Notes under the pieces: model-generated
Seen by the model: the letters and a program-made list of their open reading frames with translations, nothing else
Database searches by the model: none
What the model was told of the DNA's origin: nothing
Assembly (NCBI GenBank): GCA_049303835.1
Contig: JBAQNN010000001.1
Coordinates: forward strand, 1,762 to 65,761
Direction: 5' to 3'
Source of the DNA: Minisyncoccia bacterium
GTDB taxonomy: Bacteria; Patescibacteriota; Minisyncoccia; Phycocordibacterales; UBA9973
DNA length: 64,000 nt
Program-made: the position numbers and the translations under genes
Shown: piece after piece, positions 10,287-63,665 of the stretch
Position numbering within the stretch: position 1 is the first letter of the stretch
Layout: each line of letters opens with the position of its first letter

Positions 10287-10982
10287 ATGATTAAATTTTC
10301 AGATTTTGAGAAAAAAACAAATATAGTTTTTAAAGATAAGAATTTATTAAAACAAGCTTTTACTCACCGTTCATATATAAATGAAAACGGGGCGTCCACT
10401 ACTTCTCACAATGAAAGGCTGGAATTCTTGGGAGATGCGGTGCTTGAACTTGTTGTGACTGATTTTCTTTACAAGAAATATCCACAATATACGGAAGGAG
10501 AACTGACAGCGGTACGATCCGCCTTGGTCAATGCCATCATAATCTCAGAAATAGCCGGGGAGATAGGAATGAATGATTACCTACTTTTATCCAAAGGCGA
10601 AGCAAAAGACAACGGTAAAGCCAGGCAGTATATTTTGGCAAACACCTATGAAGCGTTTATCGGGGCTATGTATTTGGACCAGGGGTATGAAATAGTAGAT
10701 AAATTTATCACCAAGACTCTTTTACCCAAAACGGAAGAAATAGTAAAGAAAAAACTCTGGCGTGATGCCAAGTCTTTGGTTCAAGAAAAAGCACAAGAAT
10801 TTGTGTCGGTCACTCCTTTGTATAAAGTTTTGCATGAAGCAGGACCGGATCACGATAAACACTTTACGGTTGGTGTTTATTTTGGAAAAGAATTAATTAC
10901 GGAAGGCAAAGGTAAATCAAAACAAGAGGCCGAACAAAGTGCCGCTCTGGCTGCATTAAAGTTAAAAAATTGGCTGGATTAG
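10287..10982 (+). CDS. rnc: ribonuclease III
   Basis: 'HNERLEFLGDAVLELVV' RNase III signature plus C-terminal dsRBD ('GKGKSKQEAEQSAALAAL'). Confidence 0.92.
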   Translation: MIKFSDFEKKTNIVFKDKNLLKQAFTHRSYINENGASTTSHNERLEFLGDAVLELVVTDFLYKKYPQYTEGELTAVRSALVNAIIISEIAGEIGMNDYLLLSKGEAKDNGKARQYILANTYEAFIGAMYLDQGYEIVDKFITKTLLPKTEEIVKKKLWRDAKSLVQEKAQEFVSVTPLYKVLHEAGPDHDKHFTVGVYFGKELITEGKGKSKQEAEQSAALAALKLKNWLD

Positions 10983-13263: not shown

Positions 13264-15198
13264 CTAAGTTGATATCTCTTCTAGTTTTATTGTTTCTTCT
13301 TTGCCCGGAGTTATTTTATCCAATTGAAAAGCGGAGTTTAGTTGGGTAGCGTTTTTCTGCACAACCATGGATCCGTCTCTGTTTAATTTTATTTCTAAAA
13401 TCATCCCTTGCATGGTGGGTTTACTCCAAGACTGGTCAAAAATAAAATTGCCGAGCGAGTAAGCGATGAAGCCATTTTTATAAGTTTCAGTATCTTGTAC
13501 TACGTGCGGATGGTGTCCTATCACTATCTTTGCTCCGTTATCTATGGCTCTATGCGCTAGAGTTTCTTGCCTTTGATTGTGTATATTTTTATATTCATCT
13601 CCAAAGTGGAAAGAAACTATCAAGTAGTCCACTTGTTTTGATGCGGTGCTTATAATCTCATCAAAACGTGGATTATTAGCGAGAAGTAAGCCGGCTTTTT
13701 CAACTCCTGCTTCCATCCAATTTGGCCCGACATCCGAGAAGGCGAGATAGCCGATTTTCATTCCATATTTTTCAATAATAACAGGAGTTTCGGACTCTGT
13801 TTTATTTTGCCCTCCGCCAGTGTAAAGAATTTCATTTTCTTTTAAACGAGAGAGGGTATCGGCATAAGCGAGTCTACCCCAGTCTCCGACATGATTGTTT
13901 GCGACCGATAGGACACTTAGCCCGGCTCCCCTCAATGCCGGAATGACAGATGGATCCATTCTGAAAGAATAAAGATTTTTTTGATCAGCTCCTTGGTCAG
14001 AAGCGGGGCCTTCTAAGTTTGCGAAAGCGATGTCTGCTTTTGTAAATATTTCAGATAATTTTTTTGGCTCGCCCGTAGGGCTATGCCCGAGGGCTTTTTC
14101 AAAAAGCATAGAGTAGTTGCCTCCAAAATTTTTAATAACAGAATTTTCCACTCCGCGGTCAAGCATGATATCGCCCGCAAAAGCTAACAGCACAAAGTTT
14201 GGATCCTTTATACTCGGTATTCCTACTTTTTCCTCAACCCAGTCCGTGTTTGCATCAGCTTTCCCCCCATAATATATATTTTTTTCCAAATATTTTAAAA
14301 TGTTTTCCACATCTCTTTTTCTGTCAGTGCTACCGAGCAAAGTGATGGCGATGGGGCGACTGGTATTTTGTCCTAAGGGCAGAGAAAAGAGAGAAACGAC
14401 AGTTTGTCTGGCAGCATCAGTGTATCCACTCTTTCCTCCAATGTAGCCATCTTTGCTTAAAAATTGGCTGATGTTTGACCAACTGTGTTTTTTGTTGGAA
14501 TAGCTTCTTTTGGTTGTGATATCAAACAAGTCTGGTAACTGTTTGGTTATATATCCTGTCAATTTAAATATATCTGAAACGGTTGATTGATTGTTTGGAG
14601 AAAGACCGCTCGGGTCTTCAAAAAAAGTACTGGACATTTTCAATCCATCCGCCTTTTGGTTCATTTTAGAAATAAAATCATCTCTGTCAAAATACAAAGC
14701 GACTGCCTCCGCTGCGTCATTGCTTGATTCCAAAAGAAGGGGATACAATAAATCTGCTATCTTTATCTTTTCTCCCAATTTTAGTGCGCCATTTGTTCCA
14801 TAGGTGGCTAGGGCTTTTTTGCTTATGGCCGTAGTATCTTCCGGTTTTGCTATTTCCGTAGCGACTACTGCGGTCATCAGTTTGGAGACAGAAGCCAGTG
14901 GCAGTTTTTTATCTTGATTTTTGGACACGATCACTTCTCCGGTATCCAAATCACCCACCAAAAAAGCCTTGGCCGAGACCTTCGGACCAGTGGTTGCTTC
15001 TTTGTTTGTATAAAAATATTGAAATTTTTCTTCTTTGGGATTGATTACTTCTATGAGCGATGCTTGGCTGTTTTTTGATTCTATCGCACCCCTGTTCTCA
15101 AATATTGAAAACAAGAATGATGAAAAAATAAGTCCAGTTAATACTGAAAATATTATAAAAAACACCATTTTTATTTTAGCTTTAGCTACCATTTTCAT
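13264..15198 (-). CDS. fusion protein: N-terminal D-Ala-D-Ala carboxypeptidase (peptidase S11) plus C-terminal CapA/PGA_cap metallophosphatase-like domain
   Basis: TM/signal then 'LASVSKLMTAVVA' (SxxK) and 'LESSNDAAEA' (SxN). C-terminal 'IVSFHFGDEY...KIVIGHHPHVVQ' is typical of the CapA family. Confidence 0.7.
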   Translation of the reverse strand: MKMVAKAKIKMVFFIIFSVLTGLIFSSFLFSIFENRGAIESKNSQASLIEVINPKEEKFQYFYTNKEATTGPKVSAKAFLVGDLDTGEVIVSKNQDKKLPLASVSKLMTAVVATEIAKPEDTTAISKKALATYGTNGALKLGEKIKIADLLYPLLLESSNDAAEAVALYFDRDDFISKMNQKADGLKMSSTFFEDPSGLSPNNQSTVSDIFKLTGYITKQLPDLFDITTKRSYSNKKHSWSNISQFLSKDGYIGGKSGYTDAARQTVVSLFSLPLGQNTSRPIAITLLGSTDRKRDVENILKYLEKNIYYGGKADANTDWVEEKVGIPSIKDPNFVLLAFAGDIMLDRGVENSVIKNFGGNYSMLFEKALGHSPTGEPKKLSEIFTKADIAFANLEGPASDQGADQKNLYSFRMDPSVIPALRGAGLSVLSVANNHVGDWGRLAYADTLSRLKENEILYTGGGQNKTESETPVIIEKYGMKIGYLAFSDVGPNWMEAGVEKAGLLLANNPRFDEIISTASKQVDYLIVSFHFGDEYKNIHNQRQETLAHRAIDNGAKIVIGHHPHVVQDTETYKNGFIAYSLGNFIFDQSWSKPTMQGMILEIKLNRDGSMVVQKNATQLNSAFQLDKITPGKEETIKLEEIST

Positions 15199-17177
15199 AC
15201 CAATGTATAATCAATTGTTTTTCTTTCTAAATCAATCCCTTTGACTTTTATTTTAACACGGTGTCCGAGACGATATGTTTTTTTCTTTTTTTGCCCGACC
15301 AGCTCCAGTTTCTTTTCATTGAAAACATAAAAATCATCTTCCATGTCTCGCATCCGGACTAGTCCTTCGCACTTTGTTTCTATTTCTTCCACATACATAC
15401 CCCATTCTGTCATACCGCTAACCACTCCATCAAAAATTTTACCCAAACGTTTTCCCATGTATTCTACTTGTTTATATTTGATAGAAGCTCGTTCTGCATC
15501 GGAGGCGCGTTTCTCTTGTTCGGAAGAGACCAGTGCCATCTTTTCATACTCAACAAATTTATCTTTGCTGATTTTCTTCTTCTCCAGATAATTAGAGAGA
15601 AGTCTATGGATCATAATGTCCGGGTATCGTCTGATTGGGGAAGTGAAGTGAGTATAATACTTAAAAGCGAGCCCGTAGTGTCCGATATTTTTTGTGGAAT
15701 AAATTGCTTTGGCCATAGACCTGATCACCGCTCTGTTTACAGTGTCTTCTTCATTTTTTCCCTCCAGACTTTCTAATAATTTGTTTATTTCATGGCTGGG
15801 AATGATACCATCTCGGAGGGATACCTTGTGCCCTAAACTGCGCAAGAAGAATGCCAAGTCAGCCATTTTTTCTTTGCTTGGCAAATCGTGCACTCTGTAA
15901 ATTGATATCCCTTCGTTTTCTTTTGCATTTTTTACACCCCTTCCATTCTTAGGGGAGAGAACTTCTGCCACTTTTTTATTTGCTAGCAACATAAATTCTT
16001 CTATCAATTTATTTGAATCTCCACGTTCTTTTTTTATCACTTTTATAGGCACTCCATTTGCATCCAAGACAAATTTTACTTCGTCTTGTTCTAATGATAT
16101 TGCTCCTTGGGCAAATCTTTCTTTGGTTAATTTTTTTGCTAAATCATTTAAGATAGCTAGCTCTTTGTGTAGAGGAGAGCCTGCTTTTTTTATGGAAATT
16201 TCTGCTTCTTCATAAGTAAATCTTTTTTGTGAATGTATCACTGTCCTACCGAACCATTCACTTTTTACTTTTGCATTTTTATCAATGATAAAAATAGCAC
16301 TCATGGTGAGTCGGTCTTTATTTGGTACCAGACTACACAGGTCGTTGGAAAGAACTTCCGGAAGCATCGGTATAGTTCTATCTACTAAATAAACAGAAGT
16401 TCCTCGTTCGCGTGCTTCAGCATCCAAAGCACTTCCGGGCTTTACATAATAGGAGACGTCGGCGATGTGGATGCCTATTTCATACTCACCGTTTGTGATT
16501 TCCTTGAAAGAAATGGCGTCATCAAAATCCTTGGCATCCGAGGGATCAATGGTGAAGGTCAAAGTTTTTCTCATATCTCTGCGTCCTTCATAATCAGCAC
16601 TTTTTATTCCATCTTGTTTTATTTTTTTGGCCTCAAGCTCTACTTTGTCCGGTAGCTCCGAATCAAAACCTTTTTCTATCGCTATGGCATGCATCTCGGC
16701 ATTGTTGTCGCCCGGTCTGCCCAATATTTTTATTACTTTTCCTTCCGGGGCTTTTCGGGAATCTGCCCAAGAAATTATTTCAACAAAAACTTTTTGTCCC
16801 ATCTTAGCACCATTCAAATACTCTTTTGGAATCAGAATGTCCGTGTACATTTTCGTATCATCCGGCTTTAAGAAAAATATATTGTTTCTTGCCCCGTCTT
16901 TGGCGGGGTCTGTCTCCAGCACTCCGGTAAAACGAGTTTTGGCACGAGAAATAATTTTAGAAACTTCCGCTGTCTGCCGTCCAAATTTTTTGGGATGCAA
17001 GATTATCTCTACCGTATCCCCGTGTAGGGCAGTGCCGAGATGTTTGAAGTCAATTTCTGGGTCTTGGCCCGGTTCTTTAATTCCTTCAATAGCTACGTAT
17101 CCTGTACCTTTAGCTGAAATAGAGATTATGCCCTTTAAGGTAGCTTTATTTTTTAAGTGTTTCATTTTTTTAAGCAT
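15195..17177 (-). CDS. rnr: ribonuclease R (RNB family 3'-5' exoribonuclease)
   Basis: 'RRDMRKTLTFTIDPSDAKDFDDAISF' RNB catalytic motif, N-terminal OB/cold-shock domain, C-terminal S1; 660 aa. Confidence 0.9.
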   Translation of the reverse strand: MLKKMKHLKNKATLKGIISISAKGTGYVAIEGIKEPGQDPEIDFKHLGTALHGDTVEIILHPKKFGRQTAEVSKIISRAKTRFTGVLETDPAKDGARNNIFFLKPDDTKMYTDILIPKEYLNGAKMGQKVFVEIISWADSRKAPEGKVIKILGRPGDNNAEMHAIAIEKGFDSELPDKVELEAKKIKQDGIKSADYEGRRDMRKTLTFTIDPSDAKDFDDAISFKEITNGEYEIGIHIADVSYYVKPGSALDAEARERGTSVYLVDRTIPMLPEVLSNDLCSLVPNKDRLTMSAIFIIDKNAKVKSEWFGRTVIHSQKRFTYEEAEISIKKAGSPLHKELAILNDLAKKLTKERFAQGAISLEQDEVKFVLDANGVPIKVIKKERGDSNKLIEEFMLLANKKVAEVLSPKNGRGVKNAKENEGISIYRVHDLPSKEKMADLAFFLRSLGHKVSLRDGIIPSHEINKLLESLEGKNEEDTVNRAVIRSMAKAIYSTKNIGHYGLAFKYYTHFTSPIRRYPDIMIHRLLSNYLEKKKISKDKFVEYEKMALVSSEQEKRASDAERASIKYKQVEYMGKRLGKIFDGVVSGMTEWGMYVEEIETKCEGLVRMRDMEDDFYVFNEKKLELVGQKKKKTYRLGHRVKIKVKGIDLERKTIDYTLV

Positions 17178-17207
17178 ACCATATAAAGCTAAATTACCAA
17201 ATTTAGC

Positions 17208-17236
17208 TTGACAATCATGTCATAATGTGCTATACT
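17208..17236 (+). promoter_or_regulatory. near-consensus sigma70-type promoter (TTGACA, 17-nt spacer, TATACT) followed by AGGAGG RBS (17246-17251)
   Basis: TTGACA at 17208-17213, TATACT at 17231-17236, Shine-Dalgarno AGGAGG 5 nt before the ATG at 17257. Confidence 0.6.
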
Positions 17237-17256
17237 TGTAGTTAAGGAGGTATACC

Positions 17257-17784
17257 ATGAACTTCAACCGTAGCCTCATCTCGCTCTTCGTCATCATGTT
17301 CGCCCTCGCAACCCTCGTTCTCACCGGCTGCACGACCTCGTTTACCATGTCGTCTATCAACACTCCTGGCGGGCCGATCCAGGCCCACGGGGACGTCACC
17401 GTCGTGGAAAGGACGACGGACACGACGTTCCAGTCCGCCATGTCGGTGGACATGGCCAAGCATCAGGAACGCTTGGCCAAGATACAGGCTCGCGTGGAAA
17501 TCGCGCGGGCCGAGGCCGAGGCGGATGCCGCCAAGGCGAAGGCTCGAGCCGAGAACCCGTGCGCGAGCTGGTTCATGGCCCCCAGCTACTGCTATGGGTA
17601 TAGCGGTGGCGGGGTCGGCTACTACTCGAACGGGTCCGGAGGGAGCAACAGTTACTTCCGGACTGGGGGCGGAAACTACACGAATCCGTCTCGCCGACCC
17701 GGAGGAAGCAATACCTCCTTCGGAGGAGGAAACCCTCCCGGCGGCAACACCGGAGGAAGTGGCAACACCGGAGGGGCGCACTAG
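17257..17784 (+). CDS. lipoprotein (lipobox LTGC), coiled-coil then Gly/Ser/Asn/Tyr-rich tail; encoded in a ~65% GC island
   Basis: Signal peptide 'MNFNRSLISLFVIMFALATLVLTGC'. GC content switches exactly at the start codon. The antisense ORF 17242..17817 is a high-GC shadow. Confidence 0.6.
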   Translation: MNFNRSLISLFVIMFALATLVLTGCTTSFTMSSINTPGGPIQAHGDVTVVERTTDTTFQSAMSVDMAKHQERLAKIQARVEIARAEAEADAAKAKARAENPCASWFMAPSYCYGYSGGGVGYYSNGSGGSNSYFRTGGGNYTNPSRRPGGSNTSFGGGNPPGGNTGGSGNTGGAH

Positions 17785-17788
17785 TCGT

Positions 17789-17868
17789 CCCTCAGCCGAG
17801 CAATGCTCGGCACACACATCAACGACGTCGTTATGGGAAATCCCAAGCGACGTCGTTTTTAATTTGCC
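17789..17868 (+). terminator. GC-rich compound intrinsic terminator (GCCGAGC-AAT-GCTCGGC hairpin, then paired AACGACGTCGTT palindromes, then T-tract)
   Basis: Perfect 7-bp stem at ~17798-17814. Two copies of the palindrome ACGACGTCGT flank a 'GGGAAATCCC' hairpin, followed by TTTTT at 17863-17867. Confidence 0.5.
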
Positions 17869-17897
17869 TTTTTAATAATTTATGTTAAACTCTTTTT

Positions 17898-18206
17898 ATG
17901 TTAAAAATAAGACTTCAGAGAATTGGTAGGAAGAATGACCCGTCGTTTCGGGCCGTTTTGACTGATTCAAAAAACAGTACCAAGAGCGGAAAGTTTTTGG
18001 AAATTTTAGGCACTTACAATCCAAAGGCCGGAGAGAAGAATTTGATGGCTGACAGGATAAAATATTGGATGGGGAAGGGCGCAAAGTGCTCTGACACCAT
18101 GCACAACTTTTTAGTGCACGATAAAGTCATCTCTGGTAAGAAAATAAACGTTTTGCCAAAAAAGAAGCCTACCGTGAAAAGAAAAGAGTTGAAAGCCAAG
18201 AAATAA
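17898..18206 (+). CDS. rpsP: 30S ribosomal protein S16
   Basis: 'MLKIRLQRIGRKNDPSFRAVLTDS...GTYNP' is the canonical S16 N-terminus. Confidence 0.92.
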   Translation: MLKIRLQRIGRKNDPSFRAVLTDSKNSTKSGKFLEILGTYNPKAGEKNLMADRIKYWMGKGAKCSDTMHNFLVHDKVISGKKINVLPKKKPTVKRKELKAKK

Positions 18207-18292
18207 TATCCTATAATTACAGCAAAGCAGTGTCGGTCGTAAACTGCCAAAAAAGTTTTTTTAATTAAAAATATAAACAATTCTGAAACACT

Positions 18293-18652
18293 ATGGAAGA
18301 ACACGATAAGATATTTCTAGAATATGTGGTGAAGGCTCTCGTAGACAACCCGAACGATGTGAAAATTGATCGTACGGTGGACGAGATGGGTGTATTGATC
18401 ACTCTCACCGTCAATCCTGCCGACATGGGCAAGATAATCGGAAGAATGGGAAACACCGCCAAAGCTATCCGCACCTTGCTTCGCATCATCGGTATGAAGA
18501 ACAACGCTCGCGTTAATCTGAAGATCAATGAACCAGCAGGAAGCATGAGACCGGAGAGACCTATGATGGGTTCTACTGGTAGCGGACTAGGAGCTGCTCC
18601 TTCAACGCTAAAGACTGTGGATGAAGCGATGGAAGATTTGAAAGGAATCTAG
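18293..18652 (+). CDS. KH-domain RNA-binding protein (UPF0109 family, S16-operon associated)
   Basis: 'DMGKIIGRMGNTAKAIRTLLRI' KH GxxG-type motif. Position after rpsP is conserved in bacteria. Confidence 0.8.
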   Translation: MEEHDKIFLEYVVKALVDNPNDVKIDRTVDEMGVLITLTVNPADMGKIIGRMGNTAKAIRTLLRIIGMKNNARVNLKINEPAGSMRPERPMMGSTGSGLGAAPSTLKTVDEAMEDLKGI

Positions 18653-18707: not shown

Positions 18708-18784
18708 GACTTTTTTCATGAAGTATGATGTACTGAGAAAGAATTTAAGTACACCTGAAAGGGTCTTGAAAAGGAGAAGGTGAA

Positions 18785-18979
18785 ATGGCGGAAGACTTTC
18801 CCGTGGAGGTCGTCCTGACGACCCACCCAGAGGAAGATTCGTATCTCTCTCAGCGACGGAGGATTCTTCCCGGAGAGAAGTCCAAGAAGGATTTCCTCTT
18901 TCGCCCTCGTACCTGCAGATATTGTAGGAGGATGATGGTCGGATCTCTGTTCTGCCAGAGCTGTGGGCTCAGGCAGTAA
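18785..18979 (+). CDS. small (64 aa) zinc-ribbon protein (CxxC-x9-CxxC) encoded in a ~55-60% GC segment
   Basis: 'CRYCRRMMVGSLFCQSCG', AAGGAG RBS 8 nt upstream, codon usage (CCC/GTC/CTG/ACG) unlike neighbours. Sits where rimM is normally found. Confidence 0.4.
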   Translation: MAEDFPVEVVLTTHPEEDSYLSQRRRILPGEKSKKDFLFRPRTCRYCRRMMVGSLFCQSCGLRQ

Positions 18980-19079
18980 GGGCTGAGGACCCTTAAACCC
19001 TCGCGGCCGGTGGTGCTTTATATTAAGTGCCCCGGCCTTCCTTATTTAAAGTAGATAATTTTCGTGCGATAATACACAT

Positions 19080-19760
19080 ATGCGTTTTCATATCATTACA
19101 ATTTTCCCAGAGATGTTTGACTCTTATTTAAGAGAGTCTATTTTAGGGCGAGCGATCAAAGAAAAGAAAATTTCCATAAAATTCTATAATCCCAGAGATT
19201 TTATAAAACCTGTCCGCCGTGGCGGGGTGACCAAAAAAGATAATGGCTACAGACCCGTAGATAACCGGCCATATGGCGGAGGGCCGGGAATGGTCATGCG
19301 AGCTGAACCGATTTTGAAAGCAGTGGAAGCATCTTTGAAAAAAATTAAAGATAAAAAAGCGAAAACTCTGGTTATCAATTTTATCCCGAGCGCGGAAAAA
19401 TTTACTACTACTTTTGCTAAAACGTTTTCTAAAAAATATACAGATGTTGTTTTAATCTGTGGAAGATACGAGGGGATAGACGCGCGGGTAGATAAAATTT
19501 TAAGGACTAAAAAATTCTCCATCGGGGATTATGTTTTAACCGGGGGCGAACTTCCGGCCATGATTATCATAGATTCCATTTCTCGCCAGATTCCCGGAGT
19601 GCTCGGCAAATATGAGTCTTTGGAAGAAGAGCGTGTTTCAAGTAGTGAAGTTTATACCCGTCCGGAAGTTTTGAAATACAAAGGGAAAAATTACAAAGTG
19701 CCGAAAGTTTTACTCTCCGGCAACCATAAAAAAATAGAAGAATGGAAAAGAGAAAAGTAA
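19080..19760 (+). CDS. trmD: tRNA (guanine37-N1)-methyltransferase
   Basis: 'MRFHIITIFPEMF', 'GGGPGMVM', 'ICGRYEGIDARV', 'GDYVLTGGELPAM' are the SPOUT TrmD motifs. Confidence 0.93.
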   Translation: MRFHIITIFPEMFDSYLRESILGRAIKEKKISIKFYNPRDFIKPVRRGGVTKKDNGYRPVDNRPYGGGPGMVMRAEPILKAVEASLKKIKDKKAKTLVINFIPSAEKFTTTFAKTFSKKYTDVVLICGRYEGIDARVDKILRTKKFSIGDYVLTGGELPAMIIIDSISRQIPGVLGKYESLEEERVSSSEVYTRPEVLKYKGKNYKVPKVLLSGNHKKIEEWKREK

Positions 19761-22338: not shown

Positions 22339-22409
22339 AGCGGGGTAGAGAAGAGGCATCTCGTAAGGCTCATAACCTTAAGACTCACGTTCGATTCGTG
22401 ACCCCGCAA
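22339..22409 (+). tRNA. tRNA-Met/Ile2-type (anticodon CAT)
   Basis: Manual fold. Acceptor AGCGGGG/CCCCGCA (1:72 mismatch), D-arm GAGA-AGAGGCA-TCTC, anticodon arm TAAGG-CTCATAA-CCTTA, T-arm TCACG-TTCGATT-CGTGA. No encoded CCA. Confidence 0.7.
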
Positions 22410-22462
22410 CAAGTCCGGCCAAGTGACATGGCATGTCTAATTGTCGGATATAGTGTATAATT

Positions 22463-22535
22463 GTCGGCGTAGCTCAGTTAGTAGAGCACGGGACTCATAA
22501 GCCCGGGGTCGCAGGCGCACTCCCTGCCGCCGACA
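22463..22535 (+). tRNA. GC-rich tRNA with anticodon CAT, unusual D-loop (no GG) and T-loop (CGCACTC, no TTC)
   Basis: Manual fold. Acceptor GTCGGCG/CGCCGAC (perfect 7 bp), D-arm GCTC-AGTTAGTA-GAGC, anticodon arm CGGGA-CTCATAA-GCCCG, T-arm GCAGG-CGCACTC-CCTGC, discriminator A. A 9-nt duplicate 'AATTGTCGG' lies 15 nt upstream. Confidence 0.55.
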
Positions 22536-22561
22536 CCCTCAAAAAAGAGGAAGTGTTTAAA

Positions 22562-22584
22562 GAAAATTGTTTGCGATTGTAGCT
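22562..22584 (+). repeat. direct repeat: duplicated 5' end of tRNA-Asp plus its 5' leader
   Basis: 'AAAATTGTTTGCGATTGTAGCTG' at 22562 and 'AAAATTGTTTGCGATCGTAGCTC' at 22637 (the real tRNA start). Confidence 0.65.
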
Positions 22585-22646
22585 GTTTTGGCTAGTCTAA
22601 AACTAACAGGTCGCGATAGTAGTGTTCTTTGTTTTAAAAATTGTTT

Positions 22647-22720
22647 GCGATCGTAGCTCAACTGGTTAGAGCACTCGCCTGTCACGCGAGAGGTTGGCGG
22701 TTCAAATCCGCTCGGTCGCG
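22647..22720 (+). tRNA. tRNA-Asp (anticodon GTC)
   Basis: Manual fold. Acceptor GCGATCG/CGGTCGC, D-arm GCTC-AACTGGTTA-GAGC, anticodon arm CTCGC-CTGTCAC-GCGAG, T-arm GGCGG-TTCAAAT-CCGCT, discriminator G. Confidence 0.85.
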
Positions 22721-35045: not shown

Positions 35046-35200
35046 TAACTTAATAACGAAGAGAGTAGCCTAAACCTTTAGAAATAAAGGCATGGTGAAG
35101 AAAACATTTCACAGTATCAAGCTCCTAGTCAGAGCACTGTGAAATGTCGTATTCCGAAAGGTCTACGGGTCTCGCAAGAGATCGCTGGCTAGGAGCTTTA
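35046..35200 (+). ncRNA. candidate structured non-coding RNA (copy 1), unknown family
   Basis: Conserved 5' block 'AGTAGCCTAAACCTTTAGAAATAAAGGCATGGTGAAG'. Hairpin CATTTCACAGT/ACTGTGAAATG, long-range GCTCCTAGTCAG/CTGGCTAGGAGC, GNRA hairpin TCTC-GCAA-GAGA. No ORF. Its paralogue at 63.5 kb shows compensatory base changes. Confidence 0.5.
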
Positions 35201-35262
35201 TGTTCTCGGTTGGCGAACTTGAAAGCTTGACATTTTATTTAATTATAGTATAATTGATTATT

Positions 35263-38200
35263 ATGAAATTAAAAAAGTTGAGTTCATTTGTCGTAGTTGT
35301 TTTAACCTTTTCCATTGCGCTTGGCAGTTTTAACTCACCTGTCTTTGCATATGAAAAAAGTAGTGTTAATTTACAGCAAGTTAAAACCTTATCTGATAAT
35401 AGTGAAACTATTTTAAATAAATTAGATTCTATATCTAAGCCAACTAGCACCCTTTCACAAGATTTATCTAATAAAAAACAAAATTTATCAGAATCCAAAA
35501 AGAAACTAGGTACAGATTTATTGAGATTGATCGATAGTAATTTCTTATTACCAAATCAAAATCGTACCCAGGTTATATCTGAAATGAAAGGATTAAAACA
35601 GTTTGTTGCAAGTGCTGATTCTGTAAAAACTGTAGACAAAAGAGTAACCAACAAAATACATAATGATTTAGTTTATGTTTATGTAAATCTTCAACCAACA
35701 ACTTCAACTTTCGTAATTGATTCTATTGCATGGAAAGTAACTGATAGAGATGAAAAAAATCATTTAGCAGTTGCTTTAGTCGAGGTTAATAAATTAGAAA
35801 CACTTGCTTCGTTAAAGGGAGTAAAATCAGTTAGTTTAGTTTTGCCACCGGTTACTAGAAGTGGCTCTGTTGTTACAGAAGGAGATTTAATTCATCAAAC
35901 TGATGATGTTCGAAATACTTATTCTCAAGGAGGAGCTGGAATGAAAATTGGAGTTATTTCTGACGGGGTTGATAATCTCGCTTCTGCACAAACTAGTGGT
36001 GATTTGCCACCAGCTGTAACGGTTCTTAGTAATTTTGAGGGAGGTGATGAAGGTACTGCGATGTTAGAGATTATTCACGATATGGTACCAAATGCCAGTC
36101 TTTATTTTCATGATGCTGGTAGTAATGTGATAGCCTTTAACTCCGCTATTGACGCTTTAATTGCGGCAGGTGCCAATGTTATTGTTGATGATGTTGGCTG
36201 GATAACCGAACCATTTTTTGAAGATGGGACAGTAGCTTCGCATGTTGCCTCTGTGTTGGCGGTAAATAATATTGTTTATGTTTCATCTGCTGGGAATAAC
36301 GCCGAAGAACACTATCAAGGAATTTTTAATGACAATGGAAGTGGATGGCATGATTTTAGTGCAGGTTTGAATCAGGTTCTTTTGGTCTCTGTGCCCAACG
36401 GAGGTTCTATAATACCTATTTTGCAGTGGAATGATAGTTTTGGATCGTCTTCAAATGATTACGATTTATATTTAGTCAACCAATCTTCAGGAGCCCTTTT
36501 GGATGCAAGTGAAAGCGTCCAGAACGGTGATGACGACCCTTTTGAAGGAGTTATATATACAAATATAAGCGGAAGCACAATTCCAGTGGGTATTTATGTT
36601 AATAAATTTTCTGGTGTTGCAAAAACCCTAGAATTATTTATAAATCCAAAAGATGGTGCAGTTGTTAGTCCAACCAATATAACGGGCGTAGACTCTATTT
36701 TTGGTCATGCAGCAGTACCAGGAGTAATAACAGTAGGAGCTATTAATGCTAACGATCCTGGTAATGATACGATAGAACCTTTTTCTTCGCAGGGTCCTGT
36801 AACTATAATTGGTCAAGCTCAAAGAGCAAAAACAGACATAACAGGTATTGATTGTGTATCAACTTCTGCAGCAATACCTATTGCAACAGGATTACATCCT
36901 TTTTGTGGCACAAGTGCGGCTGCCCCTGCGGTGGCTGCTATTGTTGCTCAATTATGGGGACAATACCCTACAGCAACGGGTACTCAAATAAAAAATCACA
37001 TATTAAATTCAGCAGTAGAATTAGGTACAGCTGGGACCGATTCTATCTTTGGACACGGACGAGCTGATTCGCTTCTTTCTTTTCAAACTGGTCCGACAAT
37101 TGCTTCATTTAATTTTACAACCCCAGCAGTCACAGGTGTTATTAATGAAAATGCAAAAACAATTTCACTAACTGTACCTTACGGAACTAATATCACTGCC
37201 CTTGTACCAACGATTGCAGTTTCTGCTGGGACTTCAGTTGGTCCACTTTCTGGTGTAGCTCAAGATTTTTCTAGTCCTGTAATTTATACAGCCACTTCTG
37301 TGGATGGTTTAATTAAGTCTTATACAGTAACAGTTACAGTCACTCCTAATCCTGCAAAAGCAATCACTTCTTTTGATTTTACAGCTCCAACCGCAACAGG
37401 AGTTATTGATGAGAGTGCTAAAACGATTTCTTTGACAGTACCTTTTGGAACTAATGTAACTGCACTTGTTCCAACAATAGAAATTACTGGAGCATCAATT
37501 GTTCCTAATACTGGAATAGCTAATAATTTTACAACTCTACAAACTTATACAGTTACTGCTTTGGATAGTTCAACTCAAGCTTATGTAGTAACTGTAGCTT
37601 TTGATACTGATCCAGACATTGCCAAAGTGGCTACTGACAAAGCTGCACTAGTGGATAGTTTAATTCAAGGGGCAAACGCTGATTTATCAAATATAACAAC
37701 AACACTTACAAGTCCATTACCAGCTCTTGGAACTATTAATGGTTCAACAATAACATGGGCATCAAATACTCCTTCTGTTGTTTCAAATGATGGACAAACA
37801 GTAGTGAGACCAGCTTTTGGAAATGCAAATGCCACAGTAATTTTAACCGCAACAATAACTAAAGGTGTTGTAACCGATACAAAAACATTTACACTAACAG
37901 TGCTTGCAGAAACACTAAACCCAGATATTGCATTTGTTGCTTCTGACAAAGCATCTTTAGTAGATGATTCTATTAAAGGAGGAAATTCTGATTTATCAAA
38001 TATTGAAGTAGCTCTTACAGATCCATTACCATCACTTGGAGCTAATGGTTCAACTATCACTTGGTTATCAAGTGATTCAGCTGTTGTTTCAAACAATGGA
38101 CAGACAATCAATAGGCCAGCTTTTGCAGATGGAAATGCAACTATTACTATGACTGCCACTATCACAAAAGGTGTCATTACTGATACGAAAGTATTCACAT

Positions 38201-40659
38201 TAACGGTATTAAAATTACCAGCAAGCACCGTAACAACAATAACTTCTTCAACTTATACAGTAGGCGCTAATACAATTAGTAATGTTACATTTAACACATC
38301 AAAAACTGATTTCTTAGCTGCTTTAACAAAAGGAGAATTAAATCAAACTTGGAATGATGCAGGAATAAATAATCCAGTCGTTACAGGAAATACTTTAGTT
38401 GTTACTGCTCAAGATGGTATAACCACGGTAGCTTATACAGTGACTGTTAATGCAGAACCCGACACCACTGCTCCAATCATCACCCTTAATGGAATTACTC
38501 CAGACATTGAAGTTGGTGGTTCTTATACTGAACTCGGAGCAACTGCTACCGACGCTGTAGATGGTTTATTTGCAGCTACACCTTCTGGTTCGGTTGATAC
38601 TAATGTTGTTGGTACTTACACAATTACTTATACTGCCACTGACGTGGCAGGAAATATTGCCACTCCGGTAATAAGAACAATTAATGTTGTTGCAGTACCA
38701 ATAGTATTAAATAGTATTGAAATAACAACTCCCGCAACGAAACTCTCTTATACAGTTGGTGAGTCACTAGATATTACAGGATTAGTAGTTACTGGAACAT
38801 ATTCAGATTCTTCTACCCAAATAGAAACAATTACAAACAGTAACATAACTGGTTTTGATAGTTTAGTACCAATAGTTGGTCAAATTTTAACAATTACAGT
38901 TAATGGAAAAACGACAACTTATACAGTTGACATTATTGCTCTTCCAGAACCAGATACAACTGCTCCAGTCATCACCCTTAATGGTACCAATCCTACAGAA
39001 CTGACAGTTGGTGATACCTTTACTGATCCCGTCACTGCTTCTGATAATATTGATGGAGACATTACTGCGAACATTATAAAAACTGGAACCTTCATTAATT
39101 CTTCAGTAGCTGGAACATACACAATTATTTACAATGTTTCTGATGCAGCTGATAATCCAGCGACAGAAGTTACTAGAACAGTGAATGTAAATGAAGTTGT
39201 TCCAGATACTATACCTCCTATTATTGAATCTCATGATACTGTTACAGCTGAGGCAACTTCAAGTGCTGGTGCTGTTGTAAATTACACATCTCCAAATGCA
39301 ACAGACAACGTAGATGCAACAGAACCCGCAGTTTGTCTTCCAGCTTCTGGAATATTATTTATAATTGGCACTTCAGAAATAACTTGTAATAAAACAGATA
39401 CAGCTGGAAATATAGCTACACCAACAACTTTTAATGTAATAGTACAAGACACAACACCACCAGAGATTACATTAAATGGTGATACTGTTATAAATCTTAT
39501 AGTTGGTGATTCCTATGCGGATGCAGGAGCTACCGCTTCAGATATTGTTGATGGAGACTTAACTGGAAACATAATACAGGGAGGTGATGTCGTAAATACT
39601 TCACAACCTGGTTCTTATATTATTACTTATAACGTAGCTGATGCTGTCGGTAATCCTGCAACACAAACAACAAGAACAGTTAATGTTTCTGACACAGAAG
39701 CCCCAACTATTAATAGTACTTCAGATATTACTACAGAAGCAACCAGCGCTAGTGGGGCAATAGTAATTTATGATGAAAGTACTTTAACTGCTACTGATGA
39801 TATTGACGGTGTCATTTCTGTAGATGCAGGGTCCTGTATTCCTGCATCCGGCTCTATTTTTGCGCTTAGAACAACTCCTGTCTCATGTTCAGCTACTGAT
39901 TCTTCTGGAAATGAAGGCAATGGGGTAGCATTCTCTGTAATTATTGAAGATACAACTATTCCAACAATTACTATGTTGGGTTCAACTCCTATTGAACTAA
40001 CTGTTGGTGATTCCTATACGGATGCAGGAGCTACCGCTTCAGATATTGTTGATGGAGATATTACAGATAATATTATCAAGGGTGGAACTTTTGTAAATAC
40101 TACAGTTGCAGGAACATATACAATTACTTATGATGTTTCTGATATGACTGGTAATAATGCTGTTCAAGTTACAAGAACTGTTATTGTTGGTACTCCTCTA
40201 CCAGATACAACTCTTCCCGTTATTACTCTTACAGGAAGTTCAACTATGAACCTTGTAATTGGGCAGACTTTTTCAGATCCAGGTGCAACCGCTTCTGATA
40301 ATGTTGATGGAAACATTACCGCTAACATTGTAGTCGGAGGAGACACAGTAAATACCGCTAATGCCGGAACGTATATCATTACTTACAATGTTTCTGATGT
40401 CGCAACTAATGCCGCCATTGAAGTAACACGCACAGTTATTGTCACTACTCCTCCTCCAAGTGGAGGTGGTGGAGGAGGATCTACGCCACCAGCAACTAAA
40501 AAAGGTGATGCTAATAAAGATGGTAAAGTTGATAAATATGATTTTGCTTTGATAATGGCTAATTGGGGCAAGACCGGAACAAGCGATTCAGATTTTAATG
40601 GTGACAACAAAGTTGATAAATATGATTTTGCATTATTAATGTCGAACTGGGGATTATAA
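35263..40659 (+). CDS. giant secreted surface protein: signal peptide, subtilisin-like (S8) protease, tandem Ig-like/HYR-like repeats, C-terminal dockerin repeats (ORF opens at TTG 35254; ATG 35263 likelier start)
   Basis: Signal 'MKLKKLSSFVVVVLTFSIALGSF'. S8 triad context 'GVISDGVD', 'HGT', 'GTSAAAPAVAAIVAQL'. Two ~105-aa tandem repeats at ~37606-38220. Five ~85-aa repeats 'PDTTAPVITLNG...AGTYTITY.VSD..GN.A..VTRTV.V' at ~38455-40440. Dockerin-like 'GDANKDGKVDKYDFALIMANWG' and 'DFNGDNKVDKYDFALLMSNWG'. Own promoter TTGACA 35227-32 / TATAAT 35249-54. Confidence 0.8.
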   Translation: MKLKKLSSFVVVVLTFSIALGSFNSPVFAYEKSSVNLQQVKTLSDNSETILNKLDSISKPTSTLSQDLSNKKQNLSESKKKLGTDLLRLIDSNFLLPNQNRTQVISEMKGLKQFVASADSVKTVDKRVTNKIHNDLVYVYVNLQPTTSTFVIDSIAWKVTDRDEKNHLAVALVEVNKLETLASLKGVKSVSLVLPPVTRSGSVVTEGDLIHQTDDVRNTYSQGGAGMKIGVISDGVDNLASAQTSGDLPPAVTVLSNFEGGDEGTAMLEIIHDMVPNASLYFHDAGSNVIAFNSAIDALIAAGANVIVDDVGWITEPFFEDGTVASHVASVLAVNNIVYVSSAGNNAEEHYQGIFNDNGSGWHDFSAGLNQVLLVSVPNGGSIIPILQWNDSFGSSSNDYDLYLVNQSSGALLDASESVQNGDDDPFEGVIYTNISGSTIPVGIYVNKFSGVAKTLELFINPKDGAVVSPTNITGVDSIFGHAAVPGVITVGAINANDPGNDTIEPFSSQGPVTIIGQAQRAKTDITGIDCVSTSAAIPIATGLHPFCGTSAAAPAVAAIVAQLWGQYPTATGTQIKNHILNSAVELGTAGTDSIFGHGRADSLLSFQTGPTIASFNFTTPAVTGVINENAKTISLTVPYGTNITALVPTIAVSAGTSVGPLSGVAQDFSSPVIYTATSVDGLIKSYTVTVTVTPNPAKAITSFDFTAPTATGVIDESAKTISLTVPFGTNVTALVPTIEITGASIVPNTGIANNFTTLQTYTVTALDSSTQAYVVTVAFDTDPDIAKVATDKAALVDSLIQGANADLSNITTTLTSPLPALGTINGSTITWASNTPSVVSNDGQTVVRPAFGNANATVILTATITKGVVTDTKTFTLTVLAETLNPDIAFVASDKASLVDDSIKGGNSDLSNIEVALTDPLPSLGANGSTITWLSSDSAVVSNNGQTINRPAFADGNATITMTATITKGVITDTKVFTLTVLKLPASTVTTITSSTYTVGANTISNVTFNTSKTDFLAALTKGELNQTWNDAGINNPVVTGNTLVVTAQDGITTVAYTVTVNAEPDTTAPIITLNGITPDIEVGGSYTELGATATDAVDGLFAATPSGSVDTNVVGTYTITYTATDVAGNIATPVIRTINVVAVPIVLNSIEITTPATKLSYTVGESLDITGLVVTGTYSDSSTQIETITNSNITGFDSLVPIVGQILTITVNGKTTTYTVDIIALPEPDTTAPVITLNGTNPTELTVGDTFTDPVTASDNIDGDITANIIKTGTFINSSVAGTYTIIYNVSDAADNPATEVTRTVNVNEVVPDTIPPIIESHDTVTAEATSSAGAVVNYTSPNATDNVDATEPAVCLPASGILFIIGTSEITCNKTDTAGNIATPTTFNVIVQDTTPPEITLNGDTVINLIVGDSYADAGATASDIVDGDLTGNIIQGGDVVNTSQPGSYIITYNVADAVGNPATQTTRTVNVSDTEAPTINSTSDITTEATSASGAIVIYDESTLTATDDIDGVISVDAGSCIPASGSIFALRTTPVSCSATDSSGNEGNGVAFSVIIEDTTIPTITMLGSTPIELTVGDSYTDAGATASDIVDGDITDNIIKGGTFVNTTVAGTYTITYDVSDMTGNNAVQVTRTVIVGTPLPDTTLPVITLTGSSTMNLVIGQTFSDPGATASDNVDGNITANIVVGGDTVNTANAGTYIITYNVSDVATNAAIEVTRTVIVTTPPPSGGGGGGSTPPATKKGDANKDGKVDKYDFALIMANWGKTGTSDSDFNGDNKVDKYDFALLMSNWGL
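38455..40440 (+). repeat. five tandem ~255-bp coding repeats (Ig-like/HYR-type modules) inside the surface-protein gene
   Basis: Repeated peptide block beginning 'PDTTAPVITLNG'/'TEAPTINS'/'TIPTITM'/'PDTTLPVITLTG' with shared 'GATASD.VDGD.T.NII.GG..VNT...G.Y.ITY.V.D..GN.A' core. Confidence 0.7.
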
Positions 40660-63502: not shown

Positions 63503-63665
63503 CAATTTAATAAATCAGTAGCCTAAACCTTTAGCAAAAAAGGCATGGTGAAAGAAATCTCGTCAGAGTCAAAAAACCTATCATATAGGGTTTACTCTGA
63601 CGAGTCATATCTGGAAACAGGTATGGAGGACGCAAGTTCTCACCTATGTGGTAGGTTTTTTGCGT
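63503..63665 (+). ncRNA. candidate structured non-coding RNA (copy 2)
   Basis: Same conserved 5' block 'AGTAGCCTAAACCTTTAGCAAAAAAGGCATGGTGAAAG'. Hairpin TCTCGTCAGAGT/ACTCTGACGAG (compensatory relative to copy 1), GCAA-capped hairpin GGAC-GCAA-GTTC, terminal hairpin ACCTA-TGTGG-TAGGT plus TTTTTT. Confidence 0.5.

Follow-up and report, generated by a model that had tools for sequence, protein, structure and literature searches.

Two described systems come closest to the gene that we analyse here. The lipoprotein Lpp of Escherichia coli reaches ~750,000 copies per cell, and the half-life of the lpp mRNA is ~10 min (PMC5924895). In Borrelia, the surface-lipoprotein locus vls has a G+C content of 49% in a genome of 28.6%, an excess that persists in every strain and species and has been read as a case of strong selection (PMC11499132). 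The subject of this work is a gene encoding a putative lipoprotein of 175 aa, situated between rnr and rpsP in a stretch of 64,000 nucleotides from a Minisyncoccia bacterium (contig JBAQNN010000001.1 of assembly GCA_049303835.1, positions 1,762 to 65,761 of the forward strand), to which we refer as the window. We find that this ancient and syntenic lipoprotein gene, specific to bacteria of the Candidate Phyla Radiation (CPR), keeps a private GC content at third codon positions (GC3) of ~0.8, together with excess RNA structure, in genomes of 36-46% GC.

The likeness to lpp is one of design. Both genes encode a small lipobox protein with an Ala-rich helix, both are monocistronic and both carry very strong expression signals. 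The lpp mRNA was reportedly described in 1980 as rich in stable hairpins, and the principle that we propose to be common to the two is an mRNA that is structured, lives long and encodes an abundant tether of the envelope, built here around an unrelated protein. The NCBIfam model of the Lpp/OprI alanine zipper, Ala_zip_lipo (NF040598), matches 3 of the 15 family members, with a best E-value of 0.0088 that lies far below the cut-off, and does not match the window protein. Whereas Lpp and OprI are helix-only proteins of ~58-78 aa with a C-terminal Lys through which they are covalently linked to peptidoglycan, the window protein ends in NTGGAH without a C-terminal Lys, is about twice the size and possesses in addition a variable N-domain, a Cys-loop core and a Gly/Tyr tail. 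The hosts differ as well, a CPR bacterium here and a proteobacterium in the case of lpp, and lpp forms no GC island in its genome.

With vls the gene shares a surface-lipoprotein G+C that stands ~20 points above an AT-rich genome (here 0.63 vs 0.37) and a hypervariable exposed region. However, vls is characterized by a GC skew of ~0.52, by G-runs with G-quadruplex (G4) potential, by contiguous silent cassettes and by a plasmid or telomere location, whereas the lipoprotein gene and its relatives show a skew of -0.05 to +0.10 and no coding-strand G4, and the gene is a single-copy chromosomal one between rnr and rpsP. One C-run motif was seen in the related locus L006. Searches for silent cassettes by blastn and tblastn in the 64-kb window and in loci L004, L013, L015, L016 and L018 returned only the gene itself, the sole extra match being a 30-bp internal inverted repeat in L016.

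Other likenesses are more general. The rRNA and tRNA genes of AT-rich genomes form GC islands in which GC is raised locally for base-pairing, as we propose for the lipoprotein gene. In the genome-scale ordered RNA structure (GORS) of some RNA viruses, as in the lipoprotein gene, the excess folding energy is generic and not tied to one conserved structure. In contrast to both, the lipoprotein gene yields a bacterial protein-coding mRNA. Lastly, the gene resembles an islet of horizontal gene transfer (HGT) in its atypical GC and codon usage, its sharp borders and its own promoter and terminator, yet it differs from such an islet in that it occupies the same place in relatives, shows no amelioration (equilibrium GC3, or GC3*, of 0.79) and has no detectable donor. 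Gene-specific compositional islands that are maintained by selection, such as vls and structural RNAs, are already known; new here are the lipoprotein family and the different apparent basis.

Base composition and age of the lipoprotein gene

The GC content of the whole window is 0.370, and sliding windows of 528 bp have a mean of 0.370 with a standard deviation (SD) of 0.040. The top sliding window, at 17301-17828, reaches 0.640 and lies ~6.7 SD over the mean, whereas the runner-up peak is 0.483. Likewise, GC3 averages 0.31 in the 53 other open reading frames (ORFs) of the window (SD 0.07, maximum 0.52), against which the lipoprotein gene has a z of 6.6. The change in GC is step-like on both sides: GC is 0.20-0.40 over the 120 nt upstream, at least 0.57 from ~30 nt into the coding sequence (CDS), and down to 0.13-0.33 ~90 nt past the stop codon. 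The gene is the sole such GC outlier in the 64 kb, where one other small gene (18785-18979) is moderately enriched. Codon preferences are inverted with respect to the surroundings, the C fraction of NNY codons being 0.81 in the lipoprotein gene vs 0.29 in the rest of the window and the G fraction of NNR codons 0.74 vs 0.27, and every codon that the gene prefers is a minority codon in the 53 other genes. The features of the locus are as follows.

15195..17177, - strand: rnr (RNase R), the divergent neighbour (Pfam RNB, E 4.4e-110)
17208..17236, + strand: putative sigma-70-type promoter, with -35 TTGACA at 17208-17213, a 17-nt spacer and a TG-extended -10 TGcTATACT at 17228-17236 (TATACT at 17231-17236)
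17244..17250, + strand: Shine-Dalgarno sequence AAGGAGG, 6 nt 5' of the ATG, in a leader of ~20 nt; kept in the alignment of upstream regions
17257..17784, + strand: lipoprotein CDS, 175 aa, stop included; GC 0.629, GC1 0.52, GC2 0.57, GC3 0.79
17795..17811, + strand: first hairpin of the 3' untranslated region (3' UTR), a 7-bp GC-rich stem GCCGAGC/GCUCGGC; kept in L006
17821..17862, + strand: intrinsic terminator, a 12+4 bp stem-loop (17821-17857) followed by a T-run
17898..18206, + strand: rpsP (ribosomal protein S16; Pfam Ribosomal_S16), 88-98% identical in orthologous loci
17242..17817, - strand: antisense ORF of 191 codons, an artefact and not a gene

The initial annotation, made from the letters of the window, had described a GC-rich CDS with abrupt borders in AT-rich surroundings, a codon usage foreign to all neighbours, a near-consensus promoter (TTGACA, 17 nt, TATACT) of host style with an AGGAGG ribosome-binding site, GC-rich terminator hairpins, and a protein with a lipobox 'LTGC', an Ala/Glu-rich stretch taken for a coiled-coil and a Gly/Ser/Asn/Tyr-rich tail. 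Each of these is found, the hairpins being two in number with a T-run after the second, and the presence in the 64 kb of many similar genes, which would have deprived the lipoprotein gene of its anomaly, is not what we observe. The promoter scores 11 of 12 consensus matches with the TG extension present, and the cassette is kept in nearly all orthologs, including that of the non-syntenic locus L018. Given that a -10 of the TGnTAnACT type also precedes rpsP and the small gene at 18785, the lipoprotein promoter is host-style. At the other end, the two hairpins together give the 3' UTR (17785-17872) a predicted folding energy of -37.5 kcal/mol (z = -7.4); a simple terminator scan missed the terminator because of its long, structured loop.

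The composition of the protein does not account for that of the gene. The signal peptide, N-domain and core all have a GC3 of 0.87-0.88, and the Gly-rich tail has the lowest value, 0.68, which rules out amino-acid composition or the tail as the cause. In a neighbouring observation, a secreted YGTGST/YRTGST-repeat protein encoded 3' of the distant member P0036 (L024:1019-1351, +) has a GC3 of 0.36, so that a protein rich in Gly, Ser and Tyr can be encoded in these genomes without GC-rich codons. Fourfold sites of the lipoprotein gene use G and C interchangeably (GCC 0.58 and GCG 0.26, ACC 0.50 and ACG 0.38, CCC 0.38 and CCG 0.38). An overlapping antisense gene was considered and rejected, as its frame is co-aligned with the sense frame and is open only where the sense gene is without TTA, CTA and TCA; L009, L016 and L018 each carry at least one of these codons, breaking the antisense frame. 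A replication origin at the local GC-skew minimum of ~17.4 kb was rejected too, since skew tracks gene orientation and there are several local minima.

The locus is not an artefact of assembly. Three separately assembled SRA runs (SRR28062879, SRR28062869 and SRR28062503) encode the identical protein, and their Logan contigs match the window at 100% identity over 16446-18442, 16600-18244 and 16880-17796, so spanning both junctions as well as stretches of rnr and rpsP. The same architecture recurs in more than 10 independent JGI, ENA and Logan assemblies of related organisms. The assembly chimera that the initial annotation had offered as one of its two readings is ruled out by the three per-run assemblies. 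Coding status is equally clear: in addition to the identical protein on the three contigs, amino acids are conserved via different codons, with a ratio of nonsynonymous to synonymous divergence (dN/dS) of 0.26-0.41, as in a real protein-coding gene.

Relatives of the gene are few and confined in their distribution. Among 5.8 billion sequences we recovered 6 homologous proteins, then 14 with a profile, and an exhaustive hidden Markov model (HMM) search of 1.84 billion cluster representatives yielded 39 clusters at E <= 1e-3. Neither collection yielded a high-GC homolog. The family is apparently restricted to Nomurabacteria-like CPR bacteria. The sole named genome with a member is a Candidatus Nomurabacteria metagenome-assembled genome (MAG), the only one to emerge from the genome-collection scan; its rpsP and khpA are 93% and 94% identical to those of the window, which places the window in the Nomurabacteria neighbourhood of the CPR. 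No member was found in a high-GC genome among the 13 loci, and the scan of 185,579 species genomes and of JGI metagenomes gave only CPR loci; the scan of metagenome contigs re-found L013 only, and IMG/VR holds no relatives that would indicate viral carriage. A literature search for Patescibacteria or Nomurabacteria combined with lipoprotein, GC or codon usage returned no specific prior description.

Comparisons at the DNA level cover 13 distinct loci, the window included. In 12 of them the lipoprotein gene is divergent from rnr, mostly 5' of rpsP-khpA-trmD, and the copies encoding P0002-P0008, P0010, P0018 and P0036, as well as that of the Nomurabacteria MAG, adjoin rnr and/or rpsP, P0018 and P0036 being distant members from the HMM search. 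The orthologous proteins at this conserved position have diverged to 31-59% identity. Empty sites or a patchy presence were not found, since every related locus that was recovered has the gene at the rnr/rpsP site, and neither mobility genes nor a tRNA nor flanking repeats were noticed next to it. The exception is P0014 (L018:5880-6422, also in L019-L021), the most divergent member with DNA, which is not beside rnr and lies in a genome of ~45% GC. P0014 keeps the TTGAC-N17-TGnTATACT-AGGAGG cassette and a GC3 of 0.79, and here promoter and gene may have moved as a unit. It sits between a gene for an M23/LysM peptidase and a DUF5663 gene, which is followed by a 1464-aa ORF; a VKOR gene (disulfide-bond formation) lies ~5 kb upstream on the same contig.

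In all 13 loci the lipoprotein gene has a GC of 0.55-0.67, against 0.36-0.46 in flanks and host loci. GC3 is 0.73-0.83 in most members and 0.54-0.66 in L009, L012, L023 and L024, and in the nine loci long enough for the test, non-syntenic L018 included, its z is 4.2-8.2. This composition has outlasted extensive turnover of silent sites. In columns with identical residues, the window gene and its orthologs disagree at 47-66% of fourfold sites, which is near saturation for this composition, and GC is retained regardless; GC at these sites (GC4) is 0.51-0.84, vs 0.22-0.52 in rpsP, rnr and khpA of the same genome pairs. Within the subgroup L004/L016/L008/L015, the direction of synonymous changes at third positions was assigned with two outgroups that agree. 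The lipoprotein gene shows 22 changes from A/T (W) to G/C (S) and 37 from S to W, on 22 W and 137 S ancestral sites, which corresponds to a GC3* of 0.79 (current value 0.86), whereas the same procedure gives 0.35 (current 0.36) for five flanking genes, the flank counts being rough, as they are partly saturated and polarised with a single outgroup. Because parsimony overcounts common-to-rare changes in biased sequences, the true value is probably higher than 0.79. Among the polarised substitutions, S<->S changes are common. In the closest pair, L004/L016, synonymous divergence (dS) of the lipoprotein gene is 0.40, vs 0.45-0.51 for rnr, the carboxypeptidase gene and trmD. Since this matches the flanks, the substitutions arose in situ in low-GC genomes, and they give a GC3* of 0.80. 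Were the gene ameliorating, S>W changes per site would be in large excess, and they are not, which argues for an equilibrium and not a remnant. We conclude that the gene is very probably native and at compositional equilibrium. The other reading of the initial annotation, recent acquisition from a high-GC donor, does not withstand the conserved synteny, the near-saturated silent sites with high GC3, the GC3* of 0.79 that is not decaying to 0.35, and the homolog search, which detected no donor lineage, the 13 loci with DNA all lying in low-GC contexts.

Folding of the mRNA and the forces that may hold its GC

Folding energies were computed in silico as minimum free energies (MFE), as were all RNA structures given here. 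The whole transcript (17243-17866) folds at -293.7 kcal/mol, vs -235.4 +/- 6.9 in dinucleotide shuffles, a z of -8.5. A stricter null for the CDS permutes synonymous codons and keeps both the protein sequence and the gene's own codon usage. All 13 family CDS are more stable than these synonymous shuffles, with z from -2.1 to -9.7 and similar results for dinucleotide shuffles, and their MFE is 12-23% more negative than that of the shuffles. For the window CDS none of 400 shuffles was as stable as the native sequence (z -3.8). Nine flanking genes used as controls gave z values from +0.7 to -2.5, and the first 525 nt of 44 other window genes a mean z of -0.37 (SD 1.0, minimum -2.8), the lipoprotein gene being the lowest of the 45. 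Both halves of the gene contribute, z being negative for the N-half in 12 of the 13 genes and for the C-half in all 13, and in L009 and L012, where GC3 has relaxed to 0.54 and 0.61, the folding z is still ~-4.

The excess is larger on the sense strand. Mean z is -4.24 for the sense sequence vs -2.93 for its reverse complement (Wilcoxon p 0.033) and the sense MFE is the lower in 11 of 13 genes, which is what G-U pairing predicts for an effect at the RNA level. In all 13 genes G is about equal to C on the coding strand, a parity that is consistent with heavy intrastrand pairing. Structure is not spread evenly: the 40-nt window from the ATG is the least structured (mean -2.8 kcal/mol), and the gene body lies at -11 to -14. 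Such a layout, with an open start and a folded body, has been reported for well-expressed mRNAs (PMC2816680, PMC6883848). A subgroup of 82% identity keeps a common fold of 156 pairs, 21 of them with double-sided changes. Across deep subgroups, no positionally conserved fold was found by alifold against codon-column shuffles (z -0.45 for 13 sequences, -1.1 for 10, -2.4 for 6 and -0.4 for 3). A hairpin over the core motif (AGCTGG/CCAGCT in the window) was also considered as a conserved element and dropped, as codon choice in the orthologs does not maintain it.

The gene also evolves fast, and in pieces. Its dN/dS of 0.26-0.41 compares with 0.02-0.09 in neighbouring genes. In a nucleotide alignment with L006, identity is 82-100% over the flanks, the promoter and the opening ~40 nt of the CDS, falls to 41-62% over 17296-17475 and climbs back to 65-88% in the C-terminal half and 3' UTR. 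The N-domain of the window gene is of the L013 type and its tail of the L006 type. Pairwise synonymous divergence of the lipoprotein gene is uncorrelated with that of the flanks (Spearman 0.15), and the gene tree disagrees with the flanks; judging from these sequence comparisons, modules have evidently been exchanged among relatives. Fast and mosaic evolution is as expected of an exposed surface protein. At the deeper pairs, L004 or L016 vs L015, lipoprotein dS is 0.54-0.84, that is, 2-5 times below rnr, the carboxypeptidase gene, trmD and rpsP (1.0-2.5), with khpA as an exception (0.39-0.46). The low values could reflect silent-site constraint or later exchange of alleles.

Something thus acts on the silent sites of this gene in particular. 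What force could hold one gene at such a composition? We tentatively propose, as the likeliest reading but with not quite an even chance, that GC is driven by selection on the mRNA of an abundant envelope lipoprotein to be densely paired and long-lived. GC-rich synonymous codons would pair the coding region densely while the first ~40 nt stay open, and in a genome of 37% GC such dense pairing would be achievable only by raising GC. A consensus promoter, a perfect Shine-Dalgarno sequence, a double-hairpin 3' end and a paired CDS would together yield a nuclease-resistant mRNA of long life, and this stability would in turn sustain a high output of the lipoprotein, the logic of E. coli lpp carried into an AT-rich genome. 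The proposal draws on the conserved cassette, on a GC bounded by the transcribed or translated unit, on the interchangeability of G and C, on the stationary GC3 and on the slightly sense-biased excess folding; high expression and mRNA longevity are themselves inferences. There are precedents for parts of it. In eukaryotic systems, functional half-life and protein output rise when the CDS is structured and its 5' end flexible (PMC6883848), and experiments in another bacterium support a selection that acts on the G+C of genes independently of their codon usage (PMC4478552). That silent sites have been held at a private GC3 of ~0.8 (vs ~0.35) over deep time by selection for a generic, non-conserved foldedness of the mRNA is possible, though we regard it with some doubt.

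Several points weigh against selection on the mRNA. Translating ribosomes unfold a CDS, and CDS structure in bacteria often correlates negatively with translation efficiency. The structures are predictions, the asymmetry between sense and antisense is modest (p 0.03, 9 of 13 genes), and high expression is read from consensus signals only. In the absence of a conserved fold, a mutational process that makes inverted repeats could mimic selection. The nearby gene at 18785-18979 is GC-enriched in three genomes (GC3 0.67-0.73) with no clear excess folding (z -1.5, -2.1 and +0.1), so GC enrichment can occur here without folding. Finally, a mosaic gene whose tree is discordant with its flanks leaves room for causes linked to recombination. 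The locus might be a hotspot at which modules of a diversifying surface gene are swapped and the G/C-biased repair of heteroduplexes raises silent GC. Such GC-biased gene conversion (gBGC) has been proposed for bacteria (PMC4450053), and it would fit the mosaic identity to L006, the absence of correlation with flank divergence, a dN/dS 5-10 times that of the flanks, and the second variable gene nearby that is enriched without folding. Yet the borders are step-like, whereas crossovers in the conserved flanks should raise flank GC as well, and the regional gradient that a hotspot would leave is not seen in rnr (GC3 of 0.37, 0.42, 0.38 and so on toward the lipoprotein gene). Moreover, the effects reported for gBGC in bacteria amount to a few percent, and a GC3 of 0.8 vs 0.3 is far larger; nor does gBGC predict folding beyond composition-preserving shuffles or a bias to the sense strand. 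We consider it unlikely. The same mosaicism and discordant tree could arise if alleles or modules, together with the promoter cassette, were imported repeatedly from a GC-rich reservoir into this locus of low-GC Nomurabacteria, without time to ameliorate. The cassette at a different locus in L018, the lipoprotein dS below that of the flanks at deeper pairs (0.54 vs 1.2-2.5), and the ~25 family clusters that lie outside the loci with DNA context are in line with such import. However, all 13 loci lie in low-GC contexts (0.36-0.46), the genome, metagenome and viral scans gave no high-GC member, and the promoter is of host type and runs without a break into host flanks of 93-95% identity. In the closest pair, the gene and its flanks have diverged together, with an in-situ GC3* of 0.80, and import leaves the excess folding unexplained, which makes this reading improbable.

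Rare GC-ending codons might alternatively tune elongation, for example to couple it to Sec export and lipidation or to suit particular tRNAs or modifications. All the preferred codons are indeed minority codons in the 53 other genes, and the bias begins at codon 2, in a signal peptide with a GC3 of 0.88. What the gene keeps, however, is GC content and not specific codons, as is evident from the interchangeable G and C at fourfold sites and the frequent S<->S changes. NNC codons are normally read well by G34 tRNAs, and pacing predicts neither excess folding nor the parity of G and C, so that we hold it to be quite improbable. A very slim chance attaches to antigenic variation of the vls type, in which high GC would serve programmed gene conversion from silent cassettes. 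A surface-lipoprotein gene whose GC exceeds that of an AT-rich genome by ~25 points, and whose product has an exposed domain that is hypervariable, brings vls to mind, but three of its four defining features fail here: coding-strand skew is ~0 in the 13 genes vs 0.52 in vls, there are no coding-strand G4 motifs, and blastn and tblastn found no silent copies in the 64-kb window or the five long loci, the gene being a single-copy one in a housekeeping neighbourhood. As to a gene recently taken over from a high-GC organism, or a chimeric assembly, GC3 exceeds GC2 and GC1 as in a genome of ~63% GC, and the region is the only such one in the 64 kb. Against these stand the reproduced junctions, the synteny at 31-59% protein identity, the near-saturated silent sites with high GC3, the GC3* of 0.79, a host-type promoter and a search without high-GC homologs, and both are barely credible.

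If selection for a folded mRNA is indeed the cause, the lipoprotein gene would be a bacterial single-gene analogue of the GC-rich islands of structural RNA or of viral GORS, and a natural experiment that separates selection on G+C or RNA structure from mutation bias and from codon adaptation. What keeps bacterial GC above the AT-biased mutational equilibrium is an old open question that is usually studied as small genome-wide shifts. In a single gene that stands ~45 GC3 points above its genome, clade-wide, with turnover of silent sites and sharp borders, the force becomes large, local and experimentally approachable. The case also illustrates that a foreign-looking gene can be ancient and native, and compositional detectors of HGT would misclassify it. 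RNase R is an exonuclease specialised for structured RNA; the adjacency of rnr is suggestive, and the folded mRNA may be functionally tied to it.

The lipoprotein

The protein has the following parts.

17257..17331, + strand: signal peptide with lipobox L22-T-G-C25 (Cys25 codon 17329-17331); GC3 0.88
17296..17475, + strand: hypervariable segment over the last part of the signal peptide and the mature N-terminal domain; a valley of divergence or a module that has been swapped
17446..17553, + strand: predicted Ala/Glu/Lys-rich alpha-helix, residues 64-99 (AlphaFold2, pLDDT ~85)
17554..17601, + strand: core NPCxSWFMAPSYCYGY, with N100, P101, C102, S110, C112 and Y113 invariant
17602..17781, + strand: Gly/Ser/Asn/Tyr-rich tail, pLDDT <50, GC3 0.68; its length varies among orthologs

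These parts recur throughout the family, which combines a signal peptide and lipobox with a variable N-domain, an Ala/Lys/Glu helix, a two-Cys core and a Gly/Tyr/Ser/Asn tail of variable length; the tail is absent from P0006, P0009, P0010 and P0012. The N-terminus of the window protein reads MNFNR, then SLISLFVIMFALATLVL, and has the positively charged n-region and hydrophobic h-region of a lipoprotein signal. By its sequence it fits the definition of a bacterial lipoprotein, a predicted substrate of Lgt and LspA. A signal peptide is present in nearly all family members, and G24 and C25 are invariant in the family alignments (15 sequences), while a minority of distant clusters appear to carry a signal of the signal-peptidase-I type instead of a lipobox. 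The AlphaFold2 model, built from an alignment of 14 sequences, has a mean pLDDT of 55 and only two helices, the signal helix at residues 3-24 and the helix at 64-99. The latter is a probable coiled-coil stalk and the tail is probably disordered, as far as the model can tell, and the two invariant cysteines, C102 and C112, probably close an aromatic loop by a disulfide.

Pfam has no match for the protein, and NCBIfam only sub-threshold matches to lipoproteins or alanine zippers. The helix shows weak sub-threshold similarities to the Lpp/OprI alanine zipper and to the b helices of ATP synthase, the latter being the sole match in a PDB sequence search (E 0.015). The lipoprotein presumably functions in the envelope. 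For the biology of CPR bacteria, it represents an uncharacterised, probably abundant, fast-evolving and mosaic surface lipoprotein, a candidate for roles in the architecture of the envelope, in attachment to hosts or in the interaction with phages, in organisms that so far defy cultivation.

Neighbouring genes and other elements of the window

The 79-bp intergenic region serves both the rnr side and the lipoprotein promoter, and rpsP is followed by the genes for KhpA and TrmD. On the far side of rnr, a gene at 13264-15198 (- strand) encodes a D-Ala-D-Ala carboxypeptidase (Peptidase_S11) fused to a PGA_cap domain of capsule synthesis. There is an overlap of 4 nt between its start and the stop of rnr, and the pair is kept in all long orthologous loci.

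Between the lipoprotein terminator and rpsP, some lineages carry a GC-rich palindrome (CCTCACCCCCAGCCCCTCTCCTTGACAAGGAGAGGGTGGC...CCGGGTGAGG) that resembles repetitive extragenic palindromic (REP) sequences or miniature inverted-repeat transposable elements (MITEs). It is found in L006 (~1700-1760), L010 (~960-1030) and L013 (~10470-10540) and is absent from the window. A frameshifted or relic tail 3' of the short orthologs was considered and rejected, the extra GC-rich DNA there being this REP/MITE-like palindrome.

The small gene at 18785-18979 (+ strand), between khpA and trmD, encodes 64 aa with a GC of 0.55 and a GC3 of 0.67. It has its own promoter-like site, TTGACT...TGATGTACT, a ribosome-binding site AAAGGAGAAGG and a downstream hairpin. 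Its homologs at L004:10293-10454 and L016:10674-10844 have a GC3 of 0.70-0.73 and share an 'LPGEK' motif with it. A segment of ~360 bp (18733-19091) that includes the small gene is missing from the otherwise ~90% identical L006.

At the gathering threshold Rfam assigns no RNA family to the lipoprotein gene, its only matches in the window being two LOOT RNAs and three tRNAs elsewhere. The three tRNA genes form a cluster at 22339-22720 (+ strand; 54-70 bits). Both copies of the LOOT RNA motif are full-length, at 35067-35183 (+) and 63520-63641 (+), and score 82 and 87 bits against a gathering threshold of 46; the first lies directly 5' of an ORF of 1801 codons (35254-40659).

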